DNA of 64,000 nt, from the NCBI GenBank assembly GCA_016208965.1, contig JACQXB010000006.1:58262-122261 (forward strand). The letters are read 5' to 3'. Shown here one piece after another: positions 1 to 7,039 of this stretch. This stretch comes from Nitrospirota bacterium. GTDB lineage: Bacteria > Nitrospirota > Thermodesulfovibrionia > UBA6902 > DSMQ01. Within the stretch, counting starts at the first letter, position 1. Every line of letters begins with the position of its first letter. Made by a program: the position numbers and the translations under genes. The notes beneath the pieces were generated by a model. It saw only the letters and a list, made by a program, of their open reading frames with translations, was not told the DNA's origin and made no database searches.

Positions 1-655
1 CAGCCAAAAGTGTCGCTCCTCCTTCTCCAGAATAAATCCTTTTGTTATTAGAATTAAACTCATGTTTGACATCTACCAAAAGGTTCTCAATGGATAAAAT
101 TTTCCAGTGACGGCACCTATAGATATTTTTTATACCTTTTCCCCCATCAATAAAAATCTCAAGGGAAAGAATAAAGTGGTGCGCGTCATGAATAACTTTA
201 AAATCTTCAGAAGGCGAAAAAAAGAAACTTCTTTGGGTAGAATCAATGTTTTTGATATTATATGTCTTGCACTCTAAATATTGATACTCCCCTTTAAATT
301 GAAAAATAATATCTGGATACCCCATGGATTTCTTTTTCTTCTCTTTTCCTGTTGGTGTAGCTGGTTCTAATCCTTGTTCATTCATAGTGTTTTTTACAAA
401 AGGTTCAATATAATTTCCAACCTCATTAGGTCTATCACTTTCTATTCCGTTTGTACTAATCCTTTTAGCACTTTCCACTGCAACAAGTTTTAGTTTTTCG
501 AGTAGCTCTTTATCATACGGAACTGATAAATCAAATGGAATTACCTTGCAACCAGAGAGACTTTCGATAACTAAATTAAAAGGAATGTCCTTCAATGGTG
601 TGAGCATCTGCTTGATAACATTTCCTAATCTAACGACGTAATCTTTATCAGCCAT
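1..655 (-). CDS. Putative type II restriction endonuclease, PD-(D/E)xK-like (partial; gene runs off window start)
   Basis: Minus-strand ATG at 655 directly abuts the stop of the upstream MTase (656-658). Translation MADKDYVVRLGNVIKQ...GYPDIIFQF...EYQYLECKT carries a PD...ExK-like signature. No stop before position 1. Confidence 0.5.
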   Translation of the reverse strand, partial: MADKDYVVRLGNVIKQMLTPLKDIPFNLVIESLSGCKVIPFDLSVPYDKELLEKLKLVAVESAKRISTNGIESDRPNEVGNYIEPFVKNTMNEQGLEPATPTGKEKKKKSMGYPDIIFQFKGEYQYLECKTYNIKNIDSTQRSFFFSPSEDFKVIHDAHHFILSLEIFIDGGKGIKNIYRCRHWKILSIENLLVDVKHEFNSNNKRIYSGEGGATLLA

Positions 656-1945
656 TTATTTTACCTTTCTGAAGATAAGGATATTCTCTTTTTTCATTAC
701 ATTATAAAGCCCAAAAATAAGTTTCAAAATATTTCTCTCCAACTTAAAACCAAGCCCTGTCATATAATCAACAGTAAATTCTACCGTCTTTACTTCTTGC
801 CCCTGATAAGTGGCATTACCTATAACAATAACAGCATATTTATTAGGTTTTAAAATCCTATACATTTCGCTATAAGACTTCTTCATGTCGTTGTTATATA
901 ATTCAACTCGTTCTCTTCCTTTTCCACGCACACCGATAAAATCTTCTCTAATTTCATTCAATTTATAACCCATGTCCTCTAATGAGTGAGCATCATTTTC
1001 TATATAATCAAGGGCAATAGAATATGGCGGAGAGGTTATAATTCCATCAATAGAATTATCAGGTAGTTCAGTATTTCTTGAGTCTCCTTCTTTAAGGTTA
1101 ACATTCCCTAATTTTAAATGTAATGTTTCAGTGATTTCTTTATAGTCTTTTACCGAATCTATCATCAGATTCAAATTCTTGATAAATGACTGTTCAAAAG
1201 AACGTCCACGTCTTGATTCATCACTAACTGCCAATAGTCTTGTAAGAGCATAAAAATCTCGTGTATTATTATCTTTAATACCTTCCAAAACTTTGTAAAA
1301 ATCCTGTTCTTGATTGAAGAGAGATGGTTTGATTTTAGATATTAGAACATTTTTTGATTTTGTAATTTCATCTATTGCATAGACAGAGTTTGTTTTTACT
1401 TTACCTTGCAATACACATAAAGGAGAAATATCAATTCCTATAAAATTTATCCCTAATAGCTGTGCTTCCAACGCAGTTGTTCCACTTCCAGAAAATGGTT
1501 CAAATACGGTATCGCCTTCTTTTAGCCCGATGATATTTAGTAATGCTCTAATCATCTGAGGATGGAATTTGCCCTTATACGGATAAACCCAGTGAGTTAA
1601 ATATTGATTTACAGACCGTGTTCTGTTTTTTTGGATGATTTGAAAATAGTCAGTAAAATTTTTCCCAACAGACTTAAGGTAAGATGATTTTTTTATTATT
1701 TTTTCATTTAGCTCATTTGATTTATTATTTAATTTAAATTCTCTCAGTCCATTGGTAACTTCATAATCAGCCCCGAAAGCCCTCAATTCCAATTCTGCCA
1801 ATGACAGCTCATAAATAAACTGAACATTGTCTAACAAAGTTAAGTCAGCGTCTTTTGAATAACTAAAATCATAAGCCCAAAACTGACTTGCATCTTCAGC
1901 TCTTTCTAACATTATTTCACCCTTACGATTTGCAATAGTTGTCAA
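656..1945 (-). CDS. DNA amino-methyltransferase (N6A/N4C class) of an R-M pair
   Basis: 429 aa. Motif I FEPFSGSGTT precedes motif IV ITSPPYS. Tightly coupled to the downstream nuclease ORF. Confidence 0.85.
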   Translation of the reverse strand: MTTIANRKGEIMLERAEDASQFWAYDFSYSKDADLTLLDNVQFIYELSLAELELRAFGADYEVTNGLREFKLNNKSNELNEKIIKKSSYLKSVGKNFTDYFQIIQKNRTRSVNQYLTHWVYPYKGKFHPQMIRALLNIIGLKEGDTVFEPFSGSGTTALEAQLLGINFIGIDISPLCVLQGKVKTNSVYAIDEITKSKNVLISKIKPSLFNQEQDFYKVLEGIKDNNTRDFYALTRLLAVSDESRRGRSFEQSFIKNLNLMIDSVKDYKEITETLHLKLGNVNLKEGDSRNTELPDNSIDGIITSPPYSIALDYIENDAHSLEDMGYKLNEIREDFIGVRGKGRERVELYNNDMKKSYSEMYRILKPNKYAVIVIGNATYQGQEVKTVEFTVDYMTGLGFKLERNILKLIFGLYNVMKKENILIFRKVK

Positions 1946-1948
1946 TTA

Positions 1949-2200
1949 TTACCTCCCTCTTGCAAGCCCCTCAATTAGATAAGGCGGCAGTCCTGCCTCC
2001 CGCATCTTCTTTTGTATAGATACTATATCATAAGGTACCCTCTTTATTTCTATGGAATTTTGGGTGAGTATTGCGTATGAAGCATCAGGGTTATGGTCGC
2101 GGGGCTGTCCAACACTACCTACATTTGCTATATACCTGCATCTATCTTTAATATCGGCATAATCTTTGTAAACCGTTATCTTACCATCTGAACTCAGCAA
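1949..2200 (-). pseudogene. Orphan duplicated 3' fragment of the metallophosphoesterase gene
   Basis: The 83-aa ORF is ~85% identical to the C-terminus of ORF 6221..7039. DNA 1950-2076 is near-identical to 6221-6347, then diverges. Confidence 0.7.
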
Positions 2201-2261
2201 GCGTCTCCAGATAGCGTTTATCCTGTTCTAATGTCTTTTTCTGATATTCTTTTAGTTCCAT
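2181..2261 (-). pseudogene. Truncated helicase-like gene start (MELKEYQKKTLEQDKRY...), 26-aa remnant
   Basis: Minus-strand ATG at 2261. The same 5' sequence recurs at 3481-3582. The ORF runs into the phosphoesterase fragment and stops. Confidence 0.3.
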
Positions 2262-2293
2262 TTTTTATCTCAGCCAATTTCTGTGAACTGTGT

Positions 2294-3328
2294 TCAATTC
2301 TTTGCTTCCAGCATTAACTGCGCTCTTTGAATTGCTTTGTGTAATTTTTCAGCAAATAGTTCCTTTGGTGGTAATTTGGTTAAATATCCTGCTACTTTTA
2401 TTCTGTCTTCTGGCAAAAATAGTAACTCAATATGCTCCTTGCCTTTTTCTGCACAGAGGATTAGCCCTACAGGCGGGTTTTCACCTGCAAGCATTTCGTA
2501 TTTTTCTATGTATCTTAAATAAAGCTCCATCTGTCCTTTGTATTCTGCTTTGAATTTACCAAGTTTCAGGTCAATTACAACAAAACACTTCAATCTCCTA
2601 TGATAAAAAAGCAAATCAATGTAGTAGTCCTCGTTATCAATGGTAATTCTTTTCTGTCTTGCTACAAAGTAGAAATCTTTGCCTAACTCAATAATAAATT
2701 TTTCCAAAGCATTTAATATTGCCTTTTCCAAATCCTTCTCACTATAAGTATCACTGAGTTCTAAAAAGTCAAGGACATAAGGATCCCTAAAGACTAATTC
2801 AGGAGTTATCTTATCTTCTTCTTTCAATTCTTTTAATTGCTTTTCAATTGTCTTTTCCGGTAATTTTGAGAGGGCTGTTCTTTCATAGAGCATGCTATTT
2901 ATCCTATCTTGTAAAGTGCGGACGCTCTAGCGTTCCTTCTGGCAGAGAGTGGAGTAAAACCGGTGTTTCAAATCATCTTTGATAGGTAAAAGTATCCTTA
3001 TGTGTGTCCAACTCAACCCTTTGAATTCTCCACGCAGTGCGTGGAGAATTGGATAAGTTTCATAAAACTGGATCATAAACCATAAGTTTCGTGCAGAGAA
3101 AGATTTGCCATATTGGGCGATTAATAGTGAACTCAGTGAGTTCACTATCTTTTCACCATATTCAGCCCTGTCTGATTTTATTATTTCCTCTTTTATAGTT
3201 TTTCCAATATTCCAGTAAAGGATTACCATCTCCTGATTGATAGTAGCAGCAACCTTTTTTCTTGCCTGTTCAATTAAAACGGAGATTTTATCAAAAAGAC
3301 CTTTACTTTTCACAATTTTGCTCATCAA
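2294..3328 (-). pseudogene. DUF1016/YhcG-family PD-(D/E)xK nuclease with a single in-frame TAG (2927-2929)
   Basis: ORFs 2927..3328 (YhcG N-domain: ILYWNIGK, LSWTHIRILL, FYSTL) and 2294..2893 (nuclease core: IDLLFYH...VVIDLK) are in the same frame. The intervening codons read SVRTLQDRINS, so the stop sits where the family normally has Trp. Confidence 0.7.
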
Positions 3329-3444
3329 TCAATCCTTTGCCGATAAATCGGCACATTAGCAAAAGCACAAATAGCCTTGAGATATTCACCCCGCCAGTTG
3401 GATTTGAATTCAACATTTTGCGATTCAACTGATTTTAAAGCCAT
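3325..3444 (-). pseudogene. AlbA_2/Schlafen-like N-terminal fragment (39 aa)
   Basis: Minus-strand translation MALKSVESQNVEFKSNWRGEYLKAICAFANVPIYRQRID carries an EFK...ICAFAN signature. It ends in ATGA overlapping the DUF1016 start. Confidence 0.3.
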
Positions 3445-3480
3445 ATTTCCTTTCTCTCCCCTCGTCATGTAATCTTTGCC

Positions 3481-3582
3481 TCAATATCCAAACCGTGAGT
3501 TCAGGATTTGATCAACGGCAAGACAATCGAGATAAACCTTGACCTGTTCCAATGTCTTTTTCTGATATTCTTTAAGTTCCAT
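3481..3582 (-). pseudogene. Second truncated helicase-like gene start (MELKEYQKKTLEQVKVYLDCL...)
   Basis: 33-aa remnant. First ~40 nt duplicate those at 2225-2261. Confidence 0.3.
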
Positions 3583-3642
3583 TATTGTTCCTTAATGAAT
3601 TTCAATCCCTGTTCTTTAAAAAACTCAAAAAGGTCAATGTAT

Positions 3643-4071
3643 TTAATCTGGTATTTTAGTTTTATTGGGGTCGTCTTTTTCCTGAGTAATAATAGTAGTT
3701 CCTTTTGCTTGAGCCAAAGCAATTAAAAATGGGTCGGCGTCAGGTTCACCCGTTTGTAATTTCTTCTTATCGGGCAAATCAGGAAAATCCTTTATAATGT
3801 CTTTTGCAAATTGAAATATTTCAGGATTAGTTGAAATAAAAAAGCGTTTTTTATGCGCCACAGCCCATTTTTTTAACCTGTCATCTTTACCCAAGTATCT
3901 CATTATTTCCTCATACACAACATTTGTTGAGAACATATTTTTCTGCTTAATAAGAACTCCTATTTCATCCCAGATAGCCTTAAAGGTAGGATTATTCTGA
4001 GGATAAAAATTTATCAAGGTTATCAAAACATTTGTGTCAACGACGTATTTATCCCCAAAAGGCAATTCCAT
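3643..4071 (-). CDS. DUF4411-family (PIN-like) protein
   Basis: 142 aa, begins YVVDTNVLI. Sits 3 bp downstream of the HTH-ImmA gene, giving a two-gene module. Confidence 0.6.
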   Translation of the reverse strand: MELPFGDKYVVDTNVLITLINFYPQNNPTFKAIWDEIGVLIKQKNMFSTNVVYEEIMRYLGKDDRLKKWAVAHKKRFFISTNPEIFQFAKDIIKDFPDLPDKKKLQTGEPDADPFLIALAQAKGTTIITQEKDDPNKTKIPD

Positions 4072-4074
4072 AAC

Positions 4075-5217
4075 TTATATCGCTTCTTTAACTTTTGATA
4101 TTTTATCTAACGTTACCCCGAGATAATCAGCGGCACTTATATTATCAATCTTATTCTGTTCATAAGCTCCGAAGACCATAGAAACATATTTTTTACCTCT
4201 TTCCTGTATGCAAATCTTGATTTCATTTTTTTTGCCTCTTCCGCCGAAAGGCTCTTTATATTTACTCTTCCATTCTTCATGTTTACTGTGATAATATTCC
4301 TTCGTAGTTAAACCCAAAATTAATAATCTTCTTAATATGACCTCGGGGCTAACCTTGAAATCTTGTGCAATATCTTTTAGAATGTGGTCAGGCCATTCTT
4401 TCAGTTTCTCATTTGCTTTAACAATAGGATGATTTAATAATTTATCTTTCGGGGCTAAAAATGCTCCTGCAAAACGGTTACAAAATCTTTCTATATTTTG
4501 TGTCTCGTCTTCTTTCAAATCACAGATACCACCTTCTCTTAAAAGCAAATGAGCAAATTCATGGAAAAGTGTAAAAATCTTTGCAGATGGCTCATCAGAC
4601 CTTTTTAGAATAACAACCGGAACATCTTCATCAACTAAAGAAAGCCCTCTTATTTCCTTGTTTTGTGTAATGCTAATCTGAAAAACTAATATCCCGTTTT
4701 TTTCTAATATTTTTATCCACTCCTCTAAAGCGGTGTCTGTAGTAAATGAAACAGGGAACCCCTTAACACCTAATTGTCCTCTAATCTTTTCTGCAAGTTC
4801 TTCCGGATTATCCGATAAACTTGCCCTTAATGATAGTTTCTGAATTGGCTCGTCCAATTCTTTCATTAACTCAATAGTAGAATATTGAAAACGCCTTGCC
4901 TTTCTGATAGCCAAATGTGTTTTAGGATGAAGTGGCTTCTTTTTTTCGGAAGGAAGTGTCCGGTAATCAGTAGGAAAAGACGGTTCTTTTGGTGGGGTGG
5001 GTAATAAGAATGCTGTTATGGGTCTCTTGTAAATAAAGGCTAACCTTTCAAGTTGTGAAAAGGTGGGGTTTGCTTTACCTTTCTCCCAATTCTCTATAGT
5101 AGTTGTTGTTATTTTCTTTATTTCCTTAACAACATCCTTTGGCTCCATTCCAATACTTTCCCGTGCCCATATAAGAACTTCTGGTTCTATTGAAACGGCA
5201 AATGATTTATCAGGCAT
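4075..5217 (-). CDS. XRE-type HTH fused to ImmA/IrrE-family zinc metallopeptidase
   Basis: 380 aa. N-terminal HTH region, then HEFAHLLL HExxH motif followed by GICD. Confidence 0.75.
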   Translation of the reverse strand: MPDKSFAVSIEPEVLIWARESIGMEPKDVVKEIKKITTTTIENWEKGKANPTFSQLERLAFIYKRPITAFLLPTPPKEPSFPTDYRTLPSEKKKPLHPKTHLAIRKARRFQYSTIELMKELDEPIQKLSLRASLSDNPEELAEKIRGQLGVKGFPVSFTTDTALEEWIKILEKNGILVFQISITQNKEIRGLSLVDEDVPVVILKRSDEPSAKIFTLFHEFAHLLLREGGICDLKEDETQNIERFCNRFAGAFLAPKDKLLNHPIVKANEKLKEWPDHILKDIAQDFKVSPEVILRRLLILGLTTKEYYHSKHEEWKSKYKEPFGGRGKKNEIKICIQERGKKYVSMVFGAYEQNKIDNISAADYLGVTLDKISKVKEAI

Positions 5218-5234
5218 TTTATTCCTCCCATTTA

Positions 5235-6101
5235 TTATTCCTTCAGCCTATATATCTCAAACGGCAATTGGCAATAATCAATTCGGTATTCTAAAAGATA
5301 ATCGGTATCGAGATATTTGCTCGGGGCAAAGACAAGGCGCTTTTTGCCTTTGTACGGACCTAAGCTTTTTGCTACGTCAAGTGTGAGTGCGGTTGATTTT
5401 AGATAGTCAATATCAGGCTTGTAGAAAAGATATACTTCATATTCCTTTGATTCGCCAATGAAGTTTTTCTTTTCATTAACTTTTTTAGGATTAAATTCCT
5501 CTCCGGTTGCAGTATAAAAAATATAGCGCGCAAGCTCCATGTAATCACGAAGCTTTTTCCCTTCCAAAATGCTTTCCATCTCAATCGGCTCGCCAAGTTC
5601 AAAATAACTGAAAGTGCCGCCTAATCCTTCAAATCCCCCCTTGCCCCCCTTTTCTAAAGGGGGGATATTTTTAAGTCCCCCTTTGACAAAGGGGGATTGA
5701 GGGGGATTTTTCTTAATCCCCTTTATAACCCGCCTTACCCTTTCAGCAGTAATCTTATCCGCATAATCTTCGCATTCAACAAGAATAAACTTACGATTTC
5801 CGCTGTCTTCTTTATTTAAATCCAAAACTGCATGGGCAGTTGTGCCTGAACCGGCGAAGGAGTAGAGAACAATGGAGTCATTATCCGCAGATAACTTAAG
5901 TATTCTTTTTATCAGAGATGTAGGCTTTGGATTTTCAAATGGTAAATCAACTTCTGAAAAAATCTCTTTCAATCCTCTTCTTGCTTCACTATTACTACCA
6001 ACTTCATTAGCAAACCAAATAGTTAATGGTGTAATTCCTTGTTTAACCTCCAGATGATGATTCTGGACAAAACTTTTACCTTTAAAACTTAAAGTCGCCA
6101 T
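5235..6101 (-). pseudogene. C-terminal portion of a type III (Mod-like) DNA methyltransferase, 5' part missing
   Basis: NPKPTSLIKRIL...VLYSFAGSGTTAHAV gives motif X/I of a beta-class MTase. No DPPY or TRD part upstream. Two C6/G6 palindromic repeats are inserted in-frame. Confidence 0.55.
5631..5710. repeat. C6/G6 palindromic element, two tandem/overlapping copies, inside CDS
   Basis: aaatcccccc ttgcccccct tttctaaagg ggggatattt ... ctttgacaaagggggattgagggggatttt. Confidence 0.8.
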
Positions 6102-6220
6102 TTTAAATCAACCCTCCTTTTTCAAACACCTTTCGATGTTTGCTTGCAGGTATGGGAGTTATTTTGGGCATATTACGATACAGTTACCAATTCAATTGCA
6201 ACAAGCTTTTCATTAAACCC

Positions 6221-7039
6221 TTACCTCCCTCTTGCAAGCCTCTCAATTAGATAAGGCGGCAGTCCTGCCTCCCGCATCTTCTTTTGTATAGATACTATAT
6301 CATAAGGTACCCTCTTTACTTCTATGGAATTTTGGGTTAGCAGGGCGTAGGCTGCCTCTGAATTGCCGTCCCTTGGCTGGCCAACGCTGCCAACATTGAC
6401 TATATATCTGCAACCCTCTTTAATATCAGCGTAATCCTTATAAACAGAAATATCACCTTCAGGATTCATTTCTGCTATAAAGGGATAGTGACTATGCCCT
6501 ACAAAGCATATTCTTTCAGTAAAGAATTGAAAGTTTATATATGCATCCCATGTGTTCAGGATATAGTGCCATTGCTCAGGCTCTTTTGGTGTTGAATGGA
6601 CAAGATAGACATCCCCAAATCCCCCCTGCCCCCCTTTGCTAAAGGGGGGTAAGGGGGGATTTTCTTTATTGCCCTTTGTATCTCCTTGTGACACAAATGT
6701 TTCATCTGTAATTTTCAAGCTCTTGAAAATTGGAAGGCTCCTAAGAAACTCCTTATTTCTATCACTCAGAATCTCTGTTGTCCACTCTATTACCTCTTTG
6801 GCATAGGGATTAAAATACTCAATATCGGTTATGCCAATAACTGCATGGTCATGATTGCCAGCGAGGAATATTTGTGTTTCTTTTCTTAGGATTTTTATAC
6901 ATTCGTTTGGGTTAGGACCATACCCGACGATATCCCCTAAAAACCATACTGCATCAGGATTTTCTTTTTTTATTGTAATAAGGACAGACTGTAAGGCTTC
7001 AAGGTTGGCATGGACATCAGAGATAATGGCATAACGCAT
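6221..7039 (-). CDS. Calcineurin-like metallophosphoesterase (YfcE-like)
   Basis: DVHAN, GDIVGYGP and GNHD motifs. Carries an in-frame C6/G6 palindrome translated NPPLPPFSKGGQGGFG. Confidence 0.8.
   Translation of the reverse strand: MRYAIISDVHANLEALQSVLITIKKENPDAVWFLGDIVGYGPNPNECIKILRKETQIFLAGNHDHAVIGITDIEYFNPYAKEVIEWTTEILSDRNKEFLRSLPIFKSLKITDETFVSQGDTKGNKENPPLPPFSKGGQGGFGDVYLVHSTPKEPEQWHYILNTWDAYINFQFFTERICFVGHSHYPFIAEMNPEGDISVYKDYADIKEGCRYIVNVGSVGQPRDGNSEAAYALLTQNSIEVKRVPYDIVSIQKKMREAGLPPYLIERLARGR
6617..6663. repeat. C6/G6 palindromic element inside the phosphoesterase CDS
   Basis: aaatcccccctgcccccctttgctaaaggggggtaaggggggattt. Confidence 0.85.

Follow-up and report, generated by a model that had tools for sequence, protein, structure and literature searches.

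The window analysed here, a stretch of 64,000 nucleotides (nt) from contig JACQXB010000006.1 (positions 58,262 to 122,261) of the Nitrospirota bacterium assembly GCA_016208965.1, carries at one end a metallophosphoesterase gene, a series of mostly damaged defence genes, and a second, orphan copy of the 3' end of the phosphoesterase gene. All of these features lie on the minus strand and are described here from the phosphoesterase gene towards position 1. The full-length gene (6221..7039, 272 aa), assigned by Pfam Metallophos/Metallophos_2 and by synteny, is the conserved anchor of the locus, and the gene order ribE-ribBA-ribH-nusB-phosphoesterase is common to the window and its relatives. Its product is 100% identical to P0001, a protein of a Nitrospirae metagenome-assembled genome, and the nearest homologue apart from this one has an amino-acid identity of 78%. 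Among the matches listed by a scan of a genome collection with conserved peptide patterns there were only distant relatives (≤49% identity), which are suited to synteny but not to close comparison.

The sole long repeat within the first 10 kb of the window is a direct, ungapped repeat of 248 nt (1949-2196 versus 6221-6468, 83% identity). Copy B comprises the last 240 nt of the resident phosphoesterase gene (6221-6460), that is, its last 80 codons including the stop, and the edge of the repeat falls exactly at the stop codon. Copy A (1949..2188) is an orphan phosphoesterase 3' end of 80 codons, also including the stop codon, of which positions 1949-2065 are 98% identical to 6221-6337, with two differences in 117 nt. 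A sequence-only reading of this DNA had reported near-identity between 1950-2076 and 6221-6347 and a similarity of about 75% out to 2200; the repeat is real, but the near-identical block has the limits just given, the measured identity over 2066-2200 is 67%, and the homology to the phosphoesterase extends only to about 2188, since the adjoining 2189-2261 matches res genes instead.

GenBank labels the orphan fragment, at 1949-2200, as an 83-aa hypothetical protein (HY752_01200; P0121), which is better described as a pseudogene fragment. Its frame is open through 1949-2200 in the orientation of the gene, and the differences from the full gene are distributed over codon positions 1, 2, and 3 in the ratio 13:4:29. 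The first 42 codons show a nonsynonymous divergence (dN) of 0.21 and saturated synonymous divergence (dS), compared with only two base differences in the last 39 codons. The step in identity between 2065 and 2066 (37 differences in 123 nt upstream versus 2 in the 117 nt next to the stop codon) reached 35.5 in a maximum chi-square scan, a value matched by none of 2000 permutations. The nucleotide identity of the upstream part to the resident gene is 0.67, and other genera range from 0.58 to 0.77 among themselves; over the last 117 nt the two copies in the window are 0.98 identical, whereas any other pair reaches 0.72-0.81. The upstream part of the fragment diverged under purifying selection, and the saturated synonymous change together with the open frame means that it derives from a functional gene of another lineage. 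The orphan end is a chimera, in which a xenologous piece of a working gene (2066-2188) is joined to a stop-proximal block that is recently co-ancestral with the resident gene. Duplication in situ followed by neutral decay is ruled out by the codon-position bias and the open frame, and general nucleotide conservation of the last 117 nt (e.g. through an overlap with the start of purB) is ruled out by the 72-81% identity seen among relatives.

No near source of the foreign part was found among the sampled homologues, the best having about 72% amino-acid identity. For the resident copy, the locus L086 is the closest relative of ribH, ribBA, and the phosphoesterase alike, and the full gene and its upstream neighbours rank the relatives similarly. 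This weakly suggests that the full-length gene is the vertically inherited copy and the fragment an import, which perhaps arrived with the type II restriction-modification (R-M) genes described below. Where the orphan fragment ends, shortly before the start of the type II methyltransferase gene, there is a weak sigma-70-like match (TTGAGG-18-AATAAT, 1945-1974); a promoter and terminator scan of the region gave nothing beyond chance. Two further proteins, P0122 and P0124, were considered as recurrent 84-aa displaced ends with a shared breakpoint and were rejected, since they are ordinary genes cut by contig ends in which an internal start had been called.

The segment bracketed by the two copies contains decayed defence genes in three layers, namely a hic remnant, a type III R-M operon, and an AlbA_2/DUF1016 unit; its sole intact gene encodes an ImmA-like protein. 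This agrees with the general description in the sequence-only reading, which had overlooked the first layer. The 119-nt spacer after the resident stop codon consists of the end of a hicB-like antitoxin gene (6173..6208, the last 11 codons, KLVAIELVTVS, plus stop, recognized by alignment to L082) and the first 20 codons of a hicA toxin gene (6112..6171; MPKITPIPASKHRKVFEKGG in the window versus MPKISPIPAGKLRKVFEKAG in the L082 HicA). From 6208 to 6110, the window is 91% identical over 99 nt to the hicBA-type pair of L082 (L082:1247-1345). The truncated hicA meets the leader of the type III mod gene on a 10-nt string, GTGTTTGAAA (6120-6129), which is common to both parents; the same 10-mer is also found upstream of mod in L108.

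The mod gene (5235..6101; PADLOC MTase_III, profile positions 336-654) carries an in-frame deletion with its junction between 6042 and 6041. Compared with the L102 Mod, its residues 1-20 align with the same positions and its residues 55-288 with positions 331-557. The gene is damaged, as had been noted, but the deletion is internal and the 5' end is not truncated: the first 20 codons lead in frame into the part that corresponds to residues 331-557 of an intact homologue. Residues 21-330 are removed, and with them the DPPY motif and the target-recognition region. The next gene (4075..5217) encodes an intact, RmrA-like protein of 380 aa with a helix-turn-helix (HTH) and an ImmA/IrrE (M78) domain (Pfam Peptidase_M78 and HTH_3; PADLOC RmrA, E=6e-25), which aligns over its full length to homologues in 13 loci and is up to 98% identical over the part of the gene held in L098. 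It is followed by a PIN-like DUF4411 gene (3643..4071; Pfam DUF4411, profile positions 1-136 of 159, and alignment to L098). The two had been described as an intact pair, which holds for the ImmA gene but not for its partner: compared with the 96%-identical L098, a 20-nt deletion between 3647 and 3648 shifts the DUF4411 frame, and the last 28 residues are lost; its relatives have 168-170 aa and end at the res ATG. In RosmerTA (RmrT/RmrA), RmrA, with its HTH and M78 peptidase domains, is paired with an RmrT toxin; the ImmA protein here matches the RmrA models with the E-value given above, and DUF4411 matches no PADLOC model. In this region, the window is 85% identical to L102 (5863 to 3516), 96% identical to L098 (4444 to 3539), and 95% identical to L103, which has an intact res (3647 to 3539).

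Only the beginnings of two res genes are left, whereas intact homologues encode about 838 aa with a ResIII domain. The stub nearer to the resident gene (3516..3593, here stub 2) starts at an ATG at 3582 and retains about 22 codons and about 10 nt of upstream sequence; blastn alignments to 29 res loci stop at 3516-3518. The other (2189..2283, stub 1; ATG at 2261) retains 24-25 codons and about 20 nt upstream, and its blastn alignments to res loci span 2283 to 2188/2191. Its frame, MELKEYQKKTLEQDKRYLETLAEFR, then switches to phosphoesterase homology, and the direct fusion at about 2186-2191 joins two truncated open reading frames (ORFs) with no spare DNA between them, an illegitimate junction. 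The two helicase gene-start stubs of the sequence-only reading can thus be specified as type III res genes of which only the 5' end survives. The two stubs are nearly identical over their first 44 nt; a special event was considered as the cause and rejected, as the similarity reflects N-terminal conservation throughout the family. A functional type III R-M system is not encoded, as Mod lacks the DPPY motif and only 22 and 25 codons of res are left.

Between the two res stubs lies a mobile DUF1016 unit (2294..3508; Pfam DUF1016_N and YhcG_C; PADLOC PDC-S02), which consists of a leader of about 60 nt, an AlbA_2 5' stub (ATG at 3444, about 31 codons), and a DUF1016/YhcG gene (ATG at 3325). The latter is interrupted by an amber codon (TGG to TAG at 2927-2929), and both this mutation and the AlbA_2 stub had been correctly recognized from the sequence. 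The unit is 93% identical at the nucleotide level to L119 and 81% to L120/L121, in alignments that include the AlbA_2 stub, and its three contexts are unrelated, namely the slot of a type III operon in the window, the neighbourhood of a type I hsdR gene in L119, and a Zorya type I operon, to which it is appended, in L120/L121. The AlbA_2 stub beside DUF1016 is 20-31 codons long (L119:5363-6614, L120:7925-9041, and L121:5270-6386). Homologues of the DUF1016 gene that are 75-92% identical are spread over many phyla, including archaea. Its N-terminal coding region contains a near-perfect palindrome of 27 nt (3024-3050), which is conserved in L119-L121, with a second palindrome of 25 nt nearby (3124-3148).

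A GC-rich palindromic element, AATCCCCCC..CCCCCCTTTGnnAAAGGGGGG..GGGGGGATT, is present in 6 copies in the 64 kb, compared with 0.12 in shuffled sequences (5631-5727, 6617-6680, 32432, 45223, and 54981, with a shorter match at about 52930). Two copies lie in frame in ORFs, namely in mod (5631-5727) and in the phosphoesterase gene, giving ...NPPLPPFSKGGQGGF... in the protein. Several phosphoesterases of relatives have insertions at the same point and others (241 aa) have none. The element resembles in-frame palindromic elements of the miniature inverted-repeat transposable element (MITE) kind.

Beyond the orphan end, the type II DNA methyltransferase (MTase) gene (656..1912; Pfam N6_N4_Mtase; PADLOC MTase_II, E=1.5e-34) is an uninterrupted ORF that starts 37 nt past the stop codon of the fragment. 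It is followed by a type II restriction endonuclease (REase) gene (1..655; PADLOC REase_II, E=3.6e-36, profile positions 1-219 of 230), which is open to the window edge, where it ends about 10 residues before the end of the profile. With adjacent MTase and REase genes in open frames, an apparently intact type II R-M system is present, although the end of its REase is cut by the window edge. The orphan fragment had been taken for the far boundary of the island, but what follows it is this R-M system and then the edge of the window, and purB, the usual neighbour of the phosphoesterase gene, is absent from the entire window. The island is longer than the bracketed interval, and the fragment lies inside it and not demonstrably at its end. 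As regards function, just two components, the type II R-M system and the ImmA-like regulator, seem capable of working.

In relatives, the gene order is ROK-lepA-lepB-ribE-ribBA-ribH-nusB-phosphoesterase-purB, and in L001, L003, L006, L019, L033, L081, L084/85, L087, and L089 the phosphoesterase gene is followed by purB within 205 nt. As purB comes directly after the phosphoesterase gene in at least 10 relatives, the locus in the window is an insertion site, which bears out the earlier proposal of an insertion next to the phosphoesterase gene. None of 89 related loci has the 3' end of the gene in duplicate, so that the duplicated fragment is not known from relatives without an island. Other relatives carry different cargo: L082/L083 have a hicB-like/hicA pair between phosphoesterase and purB (L082:950-1532), without flanking repeats around the insert of L082, and in L088 (338-8074) the cargo downstream of the phosphoesterase gene consists of type I hsdS/hsdM, DUF1016, and a patatin-cyclase cyclic-oligonucleotide-based antiphage signalling system (CBASS). 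The contig of the closest relative (L086:2281-2318) stops 37 nt past the phosphoesterase stop codon. Given the varied defence cargo at the same site in relatives and the type II R-M system of the window, the phosphoesterase-purB gap is a hotspot for defence genes in Thermodesulfovibrionia-like genomes. Core-gene hotspots with defence islands are well known, as are accessory genes in R-M operons (e.g. PrrC in type I loci), and the region described here, a defence island in decay at a true insertion hotspot, is known biology in kind. It shares with these cases the differing defence cargo at one intergenic site and the presence of toxin-antitoxin-like or nuclease genes between mod and res, and differs from them in that the operon family in which these genes are embedded is of type III and, across 29 metagenome loci, has four or more alternative slot contents.

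This family was recovered with a degenerate DNA pattern for the shared stub peptide MELKEYQKKTLEQ, which returned 29 metagenome loci (L090-L118). They represent one type III R-M operon family with the arrangement mod-[slot]-res and an 838-aa Res with a ResIII domain. The slot is empty in 6 loci and otherwise holds ImmA and DUF4411 genes like those in the window (7 loci), a second type of ImmA and DUF4411 (6 loci), DUF1016 (5 loci), or a 157-aa gene with a DUF1828 gene (3 loci), and the final gene of the slot extends up to the res ATG or overlaps it. L102 has a compound arrangement, in which mod, ImmA, and DUF4411 are followed by a truncated res of 59 codons, a remnant, a DUF1828 gene, and an intact res (L102:4644-5794). 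In L102, the res 5' ends have diverged from each other and thus derive from two slot alleles joined in series. Integrases were absent from the 10 immediate neighbours of this operon family, and no flanking repeats were found around 8 of its operons.

The modules directly after the two phosphoesterase stop codons differ, with the hic remnant behind the resident copy and the type II MTase behind the orphan copy. As each repeat copy is followed by a different module, the locus contains two versions of the phosphoesterase-island junction placed in series. The DUF1016 unit between its two truncated res genes has the same serial design one level down, and L102 offers an independent parallel. In our view, it is somewhat more likely than not that recombination joined alternative alleles of the locus end to end, and that gene conversion and decay came afterwards. 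The phosphoesterase-purB gap would be a recombination hotspot at which defence modules are gained, stacked, and lost; from the stop codon of the gene, these would be the hicBA remnant, the dead type III operon, the AlbA_2 stub with DUF1016 and the second res 5' end, and finally the orphan end with the type II R-M system. The swappable mod-res slot of the type III operon would have been filled by ImmA and DUF4411, and the orphan end would be the relic of a second version of the phosphoesterase-island junction from another lineage. Two alleles of the locus would have been concatenated by homologous recombination on one side and illegitimate recombination on the other (homology-facilitated illegitimate recombination, or sequential displacement), which would have joined res codon ~25 to phosphoesterase codon ~193. 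The last 117 nt may have been homogenized by later gene conversion, or by a homologous exchange that stopped where homology stops, at the stop codon. The same process would yield the arrangement of the DUF1016 unit between two res stubs and the junction of hicA with mod, after which deletions and point mutations would have inactivated the bracketed segment except for the ImmA gene.

A comparable process has been described for orphan arrays of Vibrio type VI secretion system (T6SS) effector-immunity genes and of Rhs/contact-dependent inhibition (CDI) genes, which arise when recombination joins one end by homology and the other illegitimately (PMC5361080, citing de Vries & Wackernagel 2002 and Prudhomme 2002). 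In both cases, there is a conserved upstream anchor, new modules lie beside it, and older ones are pushed downstream with a leftover piece of the anchor. Furthermore, the pieces come from different lineages instead of arising by duplication, which applies to the orphan end and also to the res ends of L102, and no integrase is involved. The window differs in that its cargo consists of defence systems behind a housekeeping phosphoesterase gene and that the orphan piece is partly homogenized. Regarding microhomology, the junction between hicA and mod falls on a shared 10-nt string near the conserved anchor.

The duplicated gene end had previously been explained by integration into the phosphoesterase 3' end, with the native end displaced to the far side of the island. 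The repeats would then be attL and attR of an island inserted by a site-specific integrase, which was later deleted while the res stub became fused to attR. Integrative elements such as e14 and phage 21 in icd target the 3' end of a protein-coding gene and supply a replacement end. As in icd, a duplicated 3' end brackets foreign DNA in the window, and the gene stays intact; the repeats lie at the 3' end of a conserved gene and end exactly at its stop codon, the 240-nt repeat is single-copy in the 89 related loci, empty sites exist, and the heavy deletion of the segment makes the loss of an integrase conceivable. Had the island arisen in this way, one would expect the repeat to be identical at its 5' edge, the displaced end to be native, the native neighbour to follow that end, and an integrase to be present; none of the four is seen in the window. 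The upstream half of the fragment is xenologous, and the identity pattern is reversed, the copies being diverged towards the island and nearly identical close to the stop codon, whereas a single att crossover gives no step from 98% to 67%. The far copy adjoins a defence module and not purB, and the 5' edge of the fragment is a fusion to a res stub of 24-25 codons, not the end of an element. The sequence-only reading had stated that no integrase remains, which is true of the visible part of the island: positions 1-6220 contain no integrase-like ORF or remnant, as all ORFs are assigned to other families and less than 300 nt are left unassigned. A tRNA scan found none, there is no att-like feature, and viral contigs scanned with the res start and with the phosphoesterase fragment gave no match. 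In addition, second copies are missing from the 89 loci and repeats from around the L082 hicBA insert, the cargo belongs to R-M and defence units that elsewhere sit without integrases, and the layout of a stub plus the next module also occurs inside the island and in the unrelated L102, again without an integrase. We therefore regard an integrase-mediated origin as rather unlikely.

R-M units can also insert with a long target duplication (Nobusato 2000; Furuta, Abe & Kobayashi 2010, PMC2853133), the published criteria being R and M homologues inside the insert, an insert of <20 kb, a repeat of >30 bp, and no other mobile element (PMC2853133). The window has mod and res homologues, a 4.0-kb insert, no mobility genes, and long direct repeats of 240 nt that overlap the 3' end of a gene and are single-copy in empty sites. 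About 240 nt would have been duplicated in situ and the resident gene upstream of 6338 later replaced by a diverged allele, leaving the fragment as the old native sequence, which would explain the identity step without gene conversion. This only moves the problem, however, because the donor allele would need 117 nt of near-identity and yet ~33% divergence just upstream. Published repeats are near-identical throughout, as would be expected, whereas only 117 of the 240 nt are near-identical here; half of the repeat is xenologous and cannot be a target duplication, and its inner edge is a fusion of res and phosphoesterase, not the end of an R-M unit. Moreover, 8 other operons of the type III family lack flanking repeats, and the phosphoesterase gene ranks relatives like ribH and ribBA do, with L086 closest, which weakly argues against a replaced allele. 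We find this origin distinctly unlikely. An assembly artefact, in which the contig threads two strain variants, or the chromosome and a small circle, through the 117-nt block, has to be considered as well, since the source is a metagenome-assembled contig and the contig of the closest relative breaks 37 nt past the gene, so that the site is evidently hard to assemble. However, the two differences split the 117-nt block into exact runs that fall below the length of typical reads and k-mers, the junction of res with phosphoesterase is not inside the repeat, and a chimera at the repeat would leave one copy instead of two, making an artefact highly improbable.

Several points also weigh against the concatenation of locus alleles. 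From end products only, we infer how the DNA recombined, in what order the events took place, and that gene conversion occurred, and no relative exceeds 78% amino-acid identity, which would be needed to reveal the parental alleles. The 117-nt block needs a separate homogenizing event under every model that we constructed. Classical homology-facilitated illegitimate recombination usually deletes recipient DNA and does not duplicate a piece of the anchor gene. As the island continues to the left beyond the window, the absence of an integrase and of a further repeat copy holds for the visible part only. Finally, the strong bias towards 5' stubs of 20-60 codons is only loosely explained. At the junctions in the window, the stubs measure 20 (hicA), 20 (mod), 22 and 25 (res), and ~31 codons (AlbA_2), and elsewhere 59 (L102), ~42 (L117), and 20 codons (L120); by our own estimate, the probability of this pattern arising by chance is ~1e-5, given uniform end-points and the gene lengths. 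Donor ends of this length may be too short for a legitimate crossover, whereas longer ones would give a clean and invisible replacement, and there may also be selection for keeping the expression signals of the next gene.

Concatenation of locus alleles thus remains our preferred explanation, and with it the locus provides an example of a defence island that was assembled and eroded without dedicated mobility genes, in a lineage known only from metagenomes. It also carries a warning for annotation, as a duplicated gene end alone does not indicate integrase-mediated integration; codon-position analysis combined with a breakpoint test can separate a xenologous orphan from a displaced native end. 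By-products of the analysis are the type III R-M family with its swappable slot, the DUF1016 unit with its AlbA_2 stub, and the defence hotspot between phosphoesterase and purB. The dead DNA between the 117-nt repeats could be deleted by recombination between them. The stub pattern is seen not only in the window but also in L102, L117, and L120/L121, and we tentatively raise the possibility that the defence loci of these uncultured Nitrospirota grow mainly by one-sided homologous recombination that joins alternative alleles in series, which would systematically leave 5' stubs of 20-60 codons from the last gene of the donor and occasionally orphan ends of the anchor gene. As a linked idea, the type III R-M family would act as a carrier with a swappable slot, and the conserved mod 3' and res 5' ends would serve for the exchange of its cassettes. 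If this is true, the mechanism by which these loci grow would have left a legible trace in the non-random lengths of the stubs.

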